Shown here: piece by piece, positions 5,460 through 63,539 of the stretch
Layout: the number at the start of each line of letters is the position of its first letter
Numbering within the stretch: the stretch's first letter is position 1
Made by a program: the position numbers and the translations under genes
Notes under the pieces: generated by a model
Database searches by the model: none
What the model saw: the letters and a program-made list of their open reading frames with translations, nothing else
Told to the model about the DNA's origin: nothing
From: an uncultured Gammaproteobacteria bacterium
Lineage (GTDB): Bacteria; Patescibacteriota; Microgenomatia; UBA8517
Length of the DNA stretch: 64,000 bases
Reading direction: 5' to 3'
Assembly (NCBI GenBank): GCA_964463425.1
Contig: CAYXBV010000001.1
Location: 55,547 to 119,546 of the forward strand

Positions 5460-7469
<2,010 letters not shown>

Positions 7470-54748: not shown

Positions 54749-56384
54749 GAAACCAGTAATCGAATATTTCCCTCGCTATTGGTCCAGCAACTTGTGAGCC
54801 CTCGCCTCCTTTTTCTACTAAAACGGTCATCACTATTTCAGGAAAGTCTGATGGGGCAAAAACAGTAAACCATGCATGAGTGGCATCTTCTTGGTTTGTT
54901 TCTGCCGTTCCTGTTTTACATGCAACTAGAGGAGTAAAATCAAAAAAAGTATAACCAGTTCCTCCATCACTACAAACCTCAACCATTCCCTCTTTTACAA
55001 ATTCTAGGTTGTCTGTGTCTATTTTAACTTCTTCGCATTTCTCATTACCGGCAATTTTCGGCTCACATAGATACCCGCTTGATGCAATTGTTGATATGGC
55101 GGTGTTAATACCAACTGGTGTTAAAGAAAGATCTCCTTGTCCAATAGAAACATGATAAGTATTACCTAAGAACCAGCGCTCACCCTTAACTCTTTCTTTC
55201 CATTCCGGAGAGGGCACTAATCCTGAAATCTCTCCAGGTAAATCGATTTCTGTTTTACTTCCAAGCCCTAGTTTGTGTGACCACTCCACTAGTTTATCTA
55301 TTCCAACCAGCTCACCAATCTTGTAGAAAAATGTGTCTGTCGACCGAGCAATGGCTCTTACTAAATCTATCTCTCCTTCTGTTTTTCCATATTGAGTAAA
55401 GTACCAGTTAGAATAAGAAAATTTTCCATACAAAGTATCCATTGTGATCTGTCCTGTATCTTCATAAATATATTCTTCGTCTATCTCTCCTTCTTCTAAA
55501 GCGGCTATGGCCACAACTGGCTTGTATACAGACCCCGGAGCGAAACTTCCACCAATAACACGATTAAATAGCGGCAAATTCTTATCGTTTAATACCTCGC
55601 TTATTTCTGCCTGCTTATGACCATCAACAAATATGTTCGGATCAAAGGAAGGCGAGGAGTAAAGAGCTAAAACCTCACCTCTTGGGTCTGTGGAAATAAC
55701 CGCTCCTTGTTTTTCGGGTGGCATATCTTCACTTTCTACCACAGCTTTGGCAACAGCTTCTTGTAAACCATAGTGAATTGTTGTTTGAATATCATTGCCG
55801 GGAGTTGGATCTTTTTTGCCAAGAACCCTAATTTTCCGACCAGAAGAATCTACTTCTACTAACTCTTCACCATCAATACCAGACAAAATACATTCATACT
55901 GTTCTTCTAAGCCACTTCGACCCACTAATTGGCCTATTTTTCTTGCCCCTTTCTCGGGACACTGAGGATTAATGGTATCTAACTCTTCTTCGTTCACTTC
56001 ACCAACATAGCCAGTTAAATGAGCCGCGGCGGCTCCAAGTTTATAGTCTCTTTCCCACTCAGTAATCAACTCTTCTTCAGTGGCATTGCTAATGTCTTTT
56101 GTTTTTTCATAAGCAGACCCCGGAGTAAAAGATACTTTCAGTTGTATTTCTTTGTTTCCCGCTAATAACTCACCGCCTCTGGCAATTATGTTTCCTCGGG
56201 GTGCGGTAATTGGTACACGCCTAATTCTATTTCCTTCTGCTAAATCTCTGTAATACTCTCCCTTGATAATCTGAAGTTCAATAAGTCTCCCCACCACAAT
56301 CACGAAACCCAAAATAAGAACTCCTCTTAAAAACCACCCCAACCAGCTTTGTGACTTGGAGTTCGAAAGTGTTTCCATAACCAT
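54732..56384 (-). CDS. mrdA: Penicillin-binding protein 2 / peptidoglycan D,D-transpeptidase (class B PBP)
   Basis: N-terminal TM plus dimerisation domain; SVYKP (SxxK) and KTGTA motifs. Confidence 0.85.
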   Translation of the reverse strand: MVMETLSNSKSQSWLGWFLRGVLILGFVIVVGRLIELQIIKGEYYRDLAEGNRIRRVPITAPRGNIIARGGELLAGNKEIQLKVSFTPGSAYEKTKDISNATEEELITEWERDYKLGAAAAHLTGYVGEVNEEELDTINPQCPEKGARKIGQLVGRSGLEEQYECILSGIDGEELVEVDSSGRKIRVLGKKDPTPGNDIQTTIHYGLQEAVAKAVVESEDMPPEKQGAVISTDPRGEVLALYSSPSFDPNIFVDGHKQAEISEVLNDKNLPLFNRVIGGSFAPGSVYKPVVAIAALEEGEIDEEYIYEDTGQITMDTLYGKFSYSNWYFTQYGKTEGEIDLVRAIARSTDTFFYKIGELVGIDKLVEWSHKLGLGSKTEIDLPGEISGLVPSPEWKERVKGERWFLGNTYHVSIGQGDLSLTPVGINTAISTIASSGYLCEPKIAGNEKCEEVKIDTDNLEFVKEGMVEVCSDGGTGYTFFDFTPLVACKTGTAETNQEDATHAWFTVFAPSDFPEIVMTVLVEKGGEGSQVAGPIAREIFDYWFHEQDN

Positions 56385-61827: not shown

Positions 61828-62520
61828 TTGATTATACTACAAAGATACAGCTTCACAAATAGTATGTTAAATATAATCGTTTGGATACTCGCTTTTATAG
61901 TTGCCATTACCATTCATGAGACAGCCCATGCTTGGATGGCCGACAGACTTGGAGACCCTACTCCCAGGCTTATGGGAAGATTGTCTCTAAACCCTCTAGT
62001 TCATTATGACCCTATTGGAACAACTCTTTTGTTTATATTGGTAATCATGAGATCGCTTGGTGTACCCGTTATTCCTTTTGGTTGGGCTAAGCCAGTTAAG
62101 TTTGATCCCTACAACCTCAAAAATCCCAGAAGGGACTCTGCCTTAATTTCATTTGCAGGTCCTTTGTCTAATTTAGTACTAGCTACAGTTTTGGGTATTA
62201 TTGTTCGCATTGCCTCCACTCCCTTTTCGCCAATGCCTTTTATCGCTGATTTTTTATATCCCTTCATTATTCTTAATGTCGTTTTAGCTATCTTTAACCT
62301 TGTCCCCATCCACCCACTCGATGGAGGAAAAATTCTTATTGGTCTTCTTCCAGCCAAAGACGCTTATGAAGCAGACAGGTTCTTAAATCGATATGGCATC
62401 ATCATTTTATTCCTCCTAATTTTCCCAACCTTTGGGGGCACTTCTCCCATTTTTATGTTTCTTACGCCAATACTTAACTTCATTCTTGGTATTCTTGTCC
62501 CAGGCAGCCCTGCCATCTAA
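61828..62520 (+). CDS. M50 family site-2-protease-like membrane metalloprotease
   Basis: HETAHAW (HExxH) in TM1; LVPIHPLDGGK. Confidence 0.8.
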   Translation: MIILQRYSFTNSMLNIIVWILAFIVAITIHETAHAWMADRLGDPTPRLMGRLSLNPLVHYDPIGTTLLFILVIMRSLGVPVIPFGWAKPVKFDPYNLKNPRRDSALISFAGPLSNLVLATVLGIIVRIASTPFSPMPFIADFLYPFIILNVVLAIFNLVPIHPLDGGKILIGLLPAKDAYEADRFLNRYGIIILFLLIFPTFGGTSPIFMFLTPILNFILGILVPGSPAI

Positions 62521-62560
62521 AGTCCTTACACCGATTGACTTCATCTGATAAAATATACAT

Positions 62561-62719
62561 AACCCTGCAGAAGGGTGTTTTCGGAAGAGTTTTTTCCTCA
62601 TCGAAAAACACTTAGGGAGGGCATATAGCCTTAGCTCGTGGGCTAAAGCTGAGCTCACCCACCTGGATTTGTCCGGGGAAAAGTTATCTTCCGTTTGACC
62701 CTCGGCAGGGTTCTTTTTT
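62561..62719 (+). ncRNA. Candidate ~160-nt rod-like structured sRNA (6S/SRP-like in shape, unidentified), ending in a U-run; possible promoter TTGACT at 62535-62540
   Basis: Nested terminal helices AACCCTGC(62561-68)/GCAGGGTT(62705-12), AGGGT(62572-76)/ACCCT(62698-702), CGGAAG(62582-87)/CTTCCG(62688-93), TTTTCC/GGAAAA; followed by TTTTTT 62714-62719. Confidence 0.35.
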
Positions 62720-62785
62720 ATAATTTCACAGTATCTTCATTTTTTGGTATAATTACGCATATTTGCAAGCTGCAAATATCGTTTG

Positions 62786-62856
62786 CCGGCGTAGCTCAGT
62801 GGTAGAGCAACGGTTTTGTAAACCGTAGGTCAGTGGTTCAATCCCACTCGTCGGCT
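62786..62856 (+). tRNA. tRNA-Thr (anticodon UGU); promoter with extended -10 TGGTATAAT at 62745-62753
   Basis: Manual cloverleaf: acceptor GCCGGCG/CGTCGGC, anticodon loop TTTGTAA, T-arm AGTGG-TTCAATC-CCACT. Confidence 0.85.
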
Positions 62857-62915: not shown

Positions 62916-63539
62916 ATGGCAGTATATTCTGGGACTATGTCCATTGACGAGATTAAACATCTATATTTCGAAAAACAACTTTGCACTCGTGAAATTGGAG
63001 AAAAGCTTAATAAAACTACTTGGCAGATCATTAGGACGATGAAAAAACATAATGTTGCCCGTCGTACCTCTGCGGAAACCCAAAAAATACAGTTTCAAAG
63101 AAAGCCTCTTTCCTATAATAAAAAAGTGAGACTTTCTTCCTTTGAAAAAAGTCTCTATGAAGCAGGGCTAATGCTCTATTGGGCGGAAGGTGTTAAGACT
63201 AGGGGTACTGTTGATTTTGCCAACAGCGACAGCAGAATGGCTTCAATATTTCTTTCTATGTTGCGATCCATATACCACATAGATGAAAAGCGTCTGCGAA
63301 TTCTGTTATATTGTTACGCCAATCAAAACACTGAAAAACTTATAAAATACTGGTCAGCAAAATTAAAAATTCCAACACTGCAATTTATTAAGCCTTATGT
63401 TAAACACGATTATAATAAAAAAAAGACACACAAAATGCCACATGGACTAGTCCACATTCGGTATCATGATAAAAGATTATTTGAGCAAATATTGAAAGAT
63501 ATTGATATAATATCTAGAAAGTTAAAACAAAACGTTTAA
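62916..63539 (+). CDS. Hypothetical HTH-domain protein, possibly a LAGLIDADG-like homing endonuclease remnant, inserted inside the tRNA array
   Basis: N-terminal HTH (IDEIKHLYFEKQLCTREIGEKLNKTTWQI); LYEAGLMLYWAEG resembles a degenerate LAGLIDADG motif. Confidence 0.35.
   Translation: MAVYSGTMSIDEIKHLYFEKQLCTREIGEKLNKTTWQIIRTMKKHNVARRTSAETQKIQFQRKPLSYNKKVRLSSFEKSLYEAGLMLYWAEGVKTRGTVDFANSDSRMASIFLSMLRSIYHIDEKRLRILLYCYANQNTEKLIKYWSAKLKIPTLQFIKPYVKHDYNKKKTHKMPHGLVHIRYHDKRLFEQILKDIDIISRKLKQNV

Follow-up and report, generated by a model that had tools for sequence, protein, structure and literature searches.

Between an M50 protease gene and an array of tRNA genes in the genome of a Microgenomates bacterium lies a segment of about 160 nucleotides (nt) whose 5′ and 3′ ends form a series of nested helices, and the question raised by this locus is which RNA, if any, the segment encodes. 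The locus belongs to contig CAYXBV010000001.1 of assembly GCA_964463425.1, of which we analyzed positions 55,547 to 119,546. This stretch of 64,000 nt is called the window below, and coordinates and strands refer to it unless a relative is named. An earlier reading of the same DNA (the original prediction) had proposed a rod-shaped small RNA (sRNA) at 62561-62719, reminiscent in its shape of 6S RNA or of the small RNA of the signal recognition particle (SRP). We conclude that the element is very probably the 6S RNA (ssrS-type) gene of a bacterium of the Microgenomates (Patescibacteria, or Candidate Phyla Radiation, CPR). Judging from the sequence, it appears to represent a divergent 6S lineage, homologous to known 6S RNAs or at least isofunctional with them by architecture, which needs a model of its own.

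At Rfam gathering thresholds, the whole window yields four tRNAs and no other family. A permissive Rfam scan of 401 nt around the element (62400-62800, lax filters, E-value up to 10) returned a match to RF00013 (6S) that spans the full model (positions 1-187) and covers 62559-62715 on the + strand, with 29.2 bits and an E-value of 2.9e-4. It was the sole family with an E-value under 0.1, and no other family had an E-value below 0.5. The GGGAG and CACCCACCUGGA blocks, which flank the 6S central bubble, are identical to the RF00013 consensus, and the GGGAG and CACCC of the apical-stem closure align to the most conserved positions of the Rfam 6S family. When twelve relatives were subjected to the permissive scan, three gave a full-length, sub-threshold 6S match (31.3 bits for L012, 29.3 for L013 and 28.7 for L004), in each case at the exact ends of the 6S-like RNA.

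A small SRP (4.5S-like) RNA, the second likeness raised in the original prediction, would be compatible with the rod shape and with the size. However, the scan of the same 401 nt gave no match to an SRP family of any kind, whether bacterial (small or large) or other, even at the E-value limit of 10. The apical part contains neither a GNAR tetraloop nor the symmetric-loop motif of domain IV, and it varies in sequence as well as in length (45-120 nt among the 46 homologues described below). The likeness to SRP RNA was thus not upheld, and we give this explanation almost no credence.

Relatives of the locus were gathered via alignment of the M50 protease, which provided 80 loci from contigs representing one genome per species. 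In about 33 of these loci, a single-sequence nhmmer search with the 6S-like RNA gave a match on the + strand immediately 3′ of the M50 gene. The covariance models R1, built from 7 sequences, and R2, built from 32 sequences with long apical insertions excluded, gave full-length + strand matches in about 57 of the 80 loci, and exactly one in the window (62561-62713, 156.7 bits for R1 and 137.9 bits for R2). The matched loci carry the labels Woesebacteria, Shapirobacteria, Blackburnbacteria, 'Microgenomatus' and other Microgenomates, and most of them have the 6S-like RNA 30-140 nt 3′ of the M50 gene on the same strand. In a MAFFT alignment, conserved blocks (GACCCUG..., UUUCCU(C/G)A(C/U)C, GGGAGGGC, CACCCACCUGG, CC(A/G)GGAAA and ...CAGGGUC) surround an apical part of variable length, and the central bubble of the homologues is flanked by GGGAG...CACCCACCUGG. 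Total length ranges from 141 to 222 nt among 46 homologues, with a median of 153 nt, and the variation is located in the apical arm. One metagenome contig (L100) carries two tandem copies of the 6S-like RNA 3′ of an M50 gene (6500-6649 and 6748-6904 on the minus strand, with R2 scores of 70.5 and 73.7 bits), an arrangement reminiscent of the Bacillus cereus group, for which 6S genes in tandem have been reported (PMC7726162).

The main covariation count was made on a model-based alignment of the 46 homologues. In this alignment, 88.2% of the pair cells form standard pairs, as compared with 43-57% when the 3′ partner is slid by one to three columns and 71.4% when partners are shuffled; none of 500 shuffles attained the observed value. 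Compensatory double changes were found in 40 of the 46 pairs. The GGG/CCC closure on the apical side of the bubble is nearly invariant and paired in 99.3% of cells, and the adjacent GGGC/GCUC helix in 95.0%. The top pair of the helix next to the bubble (P3) is C-G in 19 homologues, G-C in 13 and U-A in 6. On a MAFFT alignment made blind to structure, covariation was again seen in the closing and apical stems, where 22 of 31 predicted pairs are compensatory. RNAalifold, run on the plain MAFFT alignment of 23 sequences, recovered these two stems but missed the long-range helices P2 and P3 because variable segments were misaligned, and left this region unpaired; run on 7 close sequences, it predicted two local hairpins in their place. 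The alternative 5′ hairpin to which the close sequences pointed, GGAAGA/UUUUCC, was considered and rejected: among the 46 sequences, it was paired in 76.1% of cells, versus 74.5% for shuffled and 61-73% for slid controls.

The fold of the window sequence agrees with this picture. RNAfold gives −65.1 kcal/mol for the + strand of 62561-62719, versus −46.0 ± 4.0 kcal/mol for 200 dinucleotide shuffles, none of which was as good (z = −4.82). The centroid is a long imperfect rod with an open central bubble (62600-62614 and 62661-62674 open). The reverse strand folds similarly (z = −5.1), and the strand can for this reason not be called by folding alone; the + strand was assigned because of the 6S match, the promoter and the far higher model scores on that strand. 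That the structure goes beyond chance follows from the covariation conserved among relatives. The proposed rod of about 160 nt is therefore real: it folds far better than shuffled sequence, it is conserved with covarying helices, all four helices that had been named were found where they had been placed, and the T-run at 62714-62719 is present.

A link to certified 6S RNAs came from metagenome contigs, which were scanned for a 25-nt motif (CACCCACCTGG-N3-10-CCRGGRAA). The scan returned 80 loci, about 34 of which are matched by R2. One of them, L110, contains at 2239-2416 a 6S RNA certified by Rfam with 100.1 bits. It adjoins zapA, ftsY and rarA, which is the classic neighbourhood of ssrS. R2, although built from Microgenomates elements only, matches this certified RNA at full length (42.4 bits, E-value 5e-7 in 489 kb), and the end-to-end alignment takes in the closing stem, P2 and P3, the two junctions of the bubble and the 3′ motifs. 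The bubble-flanking motifs GGG...CCC/CCCACCU are also found in the certified 6S RNA of L110. As about 45 other contigs bear the same 25-nt motif and have no R2 match, the motif alone is not the cause of the match in L110.

Weaker full-length R2 matches, of 31-41 bits, were seen in six metagenome contigs with no M50 gene nearby (L082 3248-3387, L087 1080-1219, L158 4370-4505, L124 2626-2783, L083 7230-7387 and L098 1544-1701). At its gathering threshold, Rfam makes no 6S call for any of the six, and they are probably more divergent 6S lineages that also escape standard annotation.

Both strands of the central bubble are 12-18 nt long in the 46 homologues, and no covarying pairs were assigned within it. 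The 5′ strand is A/U-rich with 8% G, and its first positions are A in 39, pyrimidine (Y) in 39, Y in 44 and purine (R) in 44 of the 46 homologues. Since this conserved A-Y-Y-R lies beside P3, U62601 and C62602 are candidate start sites for a product RNA (pRNA), with UUUUUCCUC as the template. The 3′ strand contains ACCUGG in 31 of the 46 homologues and can form a hairpin. The three G that open the P3 3′ strand belong also to the 3′ arm of this hairpin, and the hairpin and the top of P3 are for this reason mutually exclusive. The hairpin reaches −3 kcal/mol or lower in 42 of the 46 homologues. P3 has a mean pair probability of 0.37 in the free RNAs and the hairpin one of 0.45, and the two are near-isoenergetic; the mean probability of the hairpin is 0.83 once the P3 5′ strand is blocked as a mimic of pRNA. 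Shuffling of 5′ arms among sequences destabilized the hairpins, and none of 2000 shuffles equalled the native value. In these models, the competition of the hairpin with P3 suggests a pRNA-driven release of the E. coli type.

Several observations weigh against a 6S identity. The 29.2 bits on RF00013 are well under the gathering score of 46.4 bits, and 20 relatives tested at the gathering threshold gave no 6S call. The alignment of the 46 homologues was fitted to the structure, which tends to inflate the covariation counts made on it. L110 was picked via a motif from the Microgenomates 6S-like RNAs, and the sample is thus biased. Another certified 6S RNA, L105 (58.2 bits with Rfam), was matched by R2 only partially (14.8 bits, E-value 0.055), and the E. 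coli ssrS locus (L081) was matched neither by R1, with filters off, nor by R2. For the 3′-bubble hairpin, fixed-column covariation is weak, with a register that differs between subgroups, and several non-consensus hairpin arms would fold equally well with the consensus arm.

The sub-threshold Rfam scores in the window and in all 20 relatives, together with the failure of both models to find E. coli ssrS, would also suit a structured sRNA that is specific to the lineage and functions otherwise (for instance, as a protein sponge or scaffold); such an sRNA would resemble 6S RNA in its rod shape and in a few motifs without binding RNA polymerase. Rods of this kind that bind differently do exist: Ms1 RNA of Actinobacteria is structurally related to 6S RNA and binds the core RNA polymerase (PMC9130861). 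We nevertheless consider such an sRNA improbable, because the RF00013 match is full-length with identical bubble-flanking motifs, because R2 aligns end to end with the certified 6S RNA of L110, because no alternative Rfam family matches, and because the bubble sizes, the P3-proximal pyrimidines and the competing 3′ hairpin are consistent with the 6S cycle. The 6S resemblance noted in the original prediction has thus gained substance, from the only meaningful Rfam match, its repetition in homologues, a 6S architecture backed by covariation and the recovery of a certified 6S RNA by R2. The partial match to L105 and the missing match to ssrS limit the link to certified 6S RNAs, and it is for this reason that we describe the element as a divergent 6S lineage with its own model.

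Given its position, the 6S-like RNA could also act in cis within the transcript of a neighbour: the M50 mRNA might end in it, as a 3′ untranslated region (UTR) or terminator, or it might serve the downstream tRNA-Thr/Tyr operon as a leader or processing element. Linkage to the M50 gene is tight in most loci, tRNA-Thr(UGU) usually follows 50-250 nt further on, and some relatives (L001 and L002) have no clear T-tract after the element. However, the 46 homologous loci share an extended −10 element, TGnTAnAAT, whose distance to the first stem nucleotide is constant (−15 to −7). Its consensus bases occur in 32 (T at −12), 34 (A at −11), 35 (A at −9), 36 (A at −8) and 36 (T at −7) of the loci, and the TG of the extended element at −15/−14 in 32 and 29, respectively. 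The first stem nucleotide, at +1, is G or A in 41. Just past the 3′ end, at least five T within 8 nt are found in 78% of the homologues, versus 22% at random positions in the same loci.

Neighbouring genes are less constant than the element. The downstream tRNA-Thr/Tyr pair is found on either strand across loci (it is inverted in L009, L011, L012, L013, L032, L043 and others), and the 6S-like RNA keeps its place and strand. Among about 27 strong matches in the motif-selected metagenome loci, 17 have an M50 gene directly upstream on the same strand, and about 7 contigs in which 1 kb or more precedes the 6S-like RNA have no M50 gene there; contigs lacking an upstream M50 gene include L127, L115, L141 and L153. 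A covarying rod of 150 nt with a conserved open bubble also far exceeds what a terminator needs. Together, the conserved −10 geometry, the T-tract, the variable strand of the tRNA genes and the contigs that lack the M50 gene speak against each version of this explanation (3′ UTR, terminator and tRNA leader alike), and we hold a cis-acting element of this kind to be very improbable. The concern raised at the outset, that the region might be merely the 3′ UTR or terminator of the M50 gene, can accordingly be laid aside. On in silico evidence only, the 6S-like RNA appears to be an independent gene with its own promoter and a defined 3′ end.

In the two closest relatives, no clear T-tract was seen after the 6S-like RNA (L001 4850-4910, L002 4493-4544), and tRNA-Thr begins 50-60 nt after it, behind a promoter of the TGgTATAAT type. 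Close relatives may therefore form the 3′ end in different ways, read-through plus processing being one example.

The promoter proposed originally, TTGACT with a weak −10 element, was confirmed in part. TTGACT is present, but it does not qualify as a normal −35 element: it lies 8 nt from the −10 hexamer, and no −10-like hexamer is found 16-18 nt 3′ of it. The −10 element is not weak, but extended and conserved (TGaTAAAAT). A weak −35-like hexamer, CTTACA, was picked by the consensus scan 18 nt 5′ of the −10 hexamer, where close relatives have CTTnC-like bases. A TTGAC-like hexamer with a spacer of 7-8 nt to the −10 element is found in most of the 46 homologous loci (homologous positions within L001-L073), and in the more divergent L047, L057, L059, L061, L066, L071 and L073, TTGAC is found at the canonical spacing of 16-17 nt. 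The spacing of 7-8 nt is one helical turn too close for a −35 element of sigma-70, and the proximal box might act as an operator, be a relic or belong to an unusual promoter architecture.

Two more far-reaching readings of these features, a clade-specific promoter element or a bistable free RNA, are doubtful even when taken jointly. In the first, the TTGAC box could be a new operator or promoter element that controls 6S expression; alternatively, the promoter with its weak −35 and extended −10 could itself be 6S-sensitive, which would lead to negative autoregulation. In the second, the free RNA may toggle between P3 and the 3′-bubble hairpin, with release or binding tuned unlike in model organisms.

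How the element would act as a 6S RNA can be outlined from known systems. In 6S RNAs, a central bubble separates a closing stem from an apical stem, and small loops interrupt each arm (PMC8876501). In the 6S cycle, the polymerase starts a pRNA in the 5′ bubble strand and then continues into the downstream helix. In RNAs of the E. coli type, the 3′ strand of this helix, once freed, pairs with the 3′ bubble strand as a hairpin, which drives release (PMC8876501). The Microgenomates element would be transcribed from its own extended −10 promoter, starting at 62561 and ending at the U-run past the closing stem. The RNA of about 153 nt would fold into the rod of P1, P1b, P2, P3, the bubble (15 nt in the 5′ and 14 nt in the 3′ strand) and the apical stem-loop. 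What is known of 6S RNA in E. coli and B. subtilis leads one to expect that the rod, its bubble open, mimics an open promoter and fills the active-site cleft of RNA polymerase with the primary sigma factor (PMC8876501), and this occupancy would dampen housekeeping transcription when nutrients or nucleoside triphosphates (NTPs) are low. The 3′ bubble strand, 62661-62674, would correspond to the '-10-like' region of 6S RNA.

Upon a rise in NTPs, the polymerase would use the RNA as a template, presumably starting at a pyrimidine of the A-Y-Y-R motif (around 62601-62602), where the 5′ bubble strand adjoins P3. Elongation of the pRNA would read into the P3 5′ strand, the presumed template, and generate a short product such as 5′-GAUGAGGAAAAAAC. 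P3 would be unwound in the process, and the freed GGGG of its 3′ strand could pair with CCUGG of the 3′ bubble strand to form the hairpin. The refolded 6S:pRNA complex would then leave the polymerase. It is thus by inference that the RNA is taken to be expressed, to bind the polymerase and to template a pRNA, and the same holds for the exact point at which the pRNA starts and for the release switch. The parts of the RNA and its promoter are collected in Table 1.

Table 1. Parts of the 6S-like RNA gene in the window, with pairing values from the 46 homologues
Feature	Coordinates	Strand	Remarks
6S-like RNA gene	62561-62713	+	153 nt to the end of the closing stem; Rfam 6S match 62559-62715; R1 and R2 matches 62561-62713
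−35-like hexamer CTTACA, weak	62525-62530	+	18 nt 5′ of the −10 hexamer; from consensus scan; inferred
Proximal TTGACT box, conserved	62536-62541	+	8 nt 5′ of the −10 hexamer
Extended −10 element TGaTAAAAT	62546-62554	+	6 nt before 62561; +1 = A62561
Closing stem P1, 5′ strand AACCCUGC	62561-62568	+	pairs with GCAGGGUU at 62705-62712; 98.1% of cells paired; 7 of 8 pairs compensatory; also predicted on the structure-blind MAFFT alignment
P1b, 5′ strand AGGGU	62572-62576	+	pairs with ACCCU at 62698-62702; 69.6% paired, the weakest helix
P2, 5′ strand CGGAAGA	62582-62588	+	pairs with UCUUCCG at 62687-62693; 84% paired; 6 of 6 pairs compensatory
P3 ('downstream helix'), 5′ strand UUUUUCCUC	62591-62599	+	pairs with GGGGAAAAG at 62675-62683; 90.5% paired; 6 of 9 pairs compensatory
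Central bubble, 5′ strand AUCGAAAAACACUUA	62600-62614	+	15 nt; unpaired in the centroid; begins with conserved A-Y-Y-R
Apical (internal) stem-loop	62615-62660	+	closed by GGG-A-GGGC (62615-62622) and GCUC-A-CCC (62653-62660); helices 5-7 paired in 99.3%, 95.0% and 85.1%
Central bubble, 3′ strand ACCUGGAUUUGUCC	62661-62674	+	14 nt; aligned to CCCACCUgga of the Rfam 6S consensus
Potential 3′-bubble hairpin CCUGGA/UCCGGG	62662-62677	+	−8.6 kcal/mol in isolation
P3, 3′ strand GGGGAAAAG	62675-62683	+	helix 4 of the 46-homologue count
P2, 3′ strand UCUUCCG	62687-62693	+	helix 3 of the 46-homologue count
P1b, 3′ strand ACCCU	62698-62702	+	helix 2 of the 46-homologue count
Closing stem P1, 3′ strand GCAGGGUU	62705-62712	+	helix 1 of the 46-homologue count
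U-tract after the closing stem	62714-62719	+	terminator-like site in the signal scan; probably the intrinsic termination point

The transcript probably ends within the U-run, as far as 62719. The window has a low GC content of about 38%, and the closest relatives of its M50 protease are labelled Patescibacteria, Woesebacteria and Microgenomates. The order of genes is def, fmt, rpmB (on the reverse strand), the M50 protease gene, the 6S-like RNA, tRNA-Thr(UGU), an open reading frame (ORF) of 207 amino acids, tRNA-Tyr, tRNA-Thr(GGU) and rpmG. The ORF (62916-63539, + strand) sits between tRNA-Thr(UGU) and tRNA-Tyr(GUA) and had no match in a Pfam scan. In the close relatives L001 and L002, tRNA-Thr(UGU) and tRNA-Tyr are adjacent, with a gap of about 1 kb between tRNA-Tyr and tRNA-Thr(GGU) instead. 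The ORF may have entered the tRNA array as an insertion, mobile or lineage-specific.

The tRNA promoter that had been noted right after the element, TTCACA-17-TGgTATAAT (62725-62753), was recovered with a consensus match of 11 of 12. Just 5′ of it, and overlapping the 3′ end of the 6S-like RNA, is another promoter-like match of 11 of 12, TTGACC-18-TATAAT (62695-62724, + strand), whose TTGACC is part of the P1b 3′ strand. This match could be fortuitous or a tandem tRNA promoter.

6S RNA has been described as occurring in nearly all bacteria (PMC8414754). In the literature library that was searched, no paper linking 6S RNA to CPR or Patescibacteria was found, and Rfam gathering thresholds leave 6S RNA uncalled in these Microgenomates genomes. 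A clade-specific model would close this annotation gap, and by analogy it would indicate that ultra-small, genome-reduced and probably symbiotic CPR bacteria retain a global regulator that sequesters RNA polymerase. Reads of pRNA in metatranscriptomes would be a testable handle on the control of growth arrest and outgrowth in bacteria that cannot yet be cultured alone. The finding extends a well-known system and introduces no new principle. Its one truly odd feature is the conserved TTGAC box 7-8 nt from the −10 element, with the canonical distance of 16-17 nt in divergent relatives.

Compared with the gamma-proteobacterial (E. coli) type of 6S RNA (SsrS, RF00013), the Microgenomates RNA has the same rod of closing stem, large central bubble and apical stem, with GGG/CCC pairs shutting the apical side of the bubble. 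It also shares CACCCACCU(G/U)G at the start of the 3′ bubble strand and CCU(G/C)A..C.GA at the junction of P3 and the 5′ bubble strand, the counterpart of which in E. coli ssrS is CCUGAGCCGAU. As in the E. coli type, the 3′ bubble strand can pair as a hairpin with the downstream helix's 3′ strand (PMC8876501). In contrast to the E. coli type, the median length is 153 nt rather than 184 nt, the predicted release hairpin has 5-7 rather than 9 base pairs and is near-isoenergetic with P3 already in the free RNA, and the genomic context is an M50 protease gene with tRNA-Thr/Tyr instead of zapA and fau.

The short predicted hairpin of 5-7 base pairs is a feature shared with B. subtilis 6S-1, in which a 3′-bubble hairpin of this size is likewise possible in the free RNA (PMC8876501). 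In 6S-1, the hairpin spares the P2 3′ strand, and release is helped by a 'central bubble collapse helix' (PMC8876501). The Microgenomates hairpin, like that of the E. coli type, takes in part of the P3 3′ strand, and in this it differs from 6S-1. 6S-1 and the Microgenomates RNA are expected to pass through the same overall cycle (PMC8876501).

Lineage-specific 6S variants with their own Rfam models exist, for example 6S-Flavo. Such variants, together with Ms1, are precedents for 6S-like RNAs that are missed by the general model and for which a clade-specific model is needed. The Microgenomates RNA is nevertheless distinct from Ms1, as it has about 153 nt rather than about 300 nt and is found in Patescibacteria rather than in an actinobacterial host.

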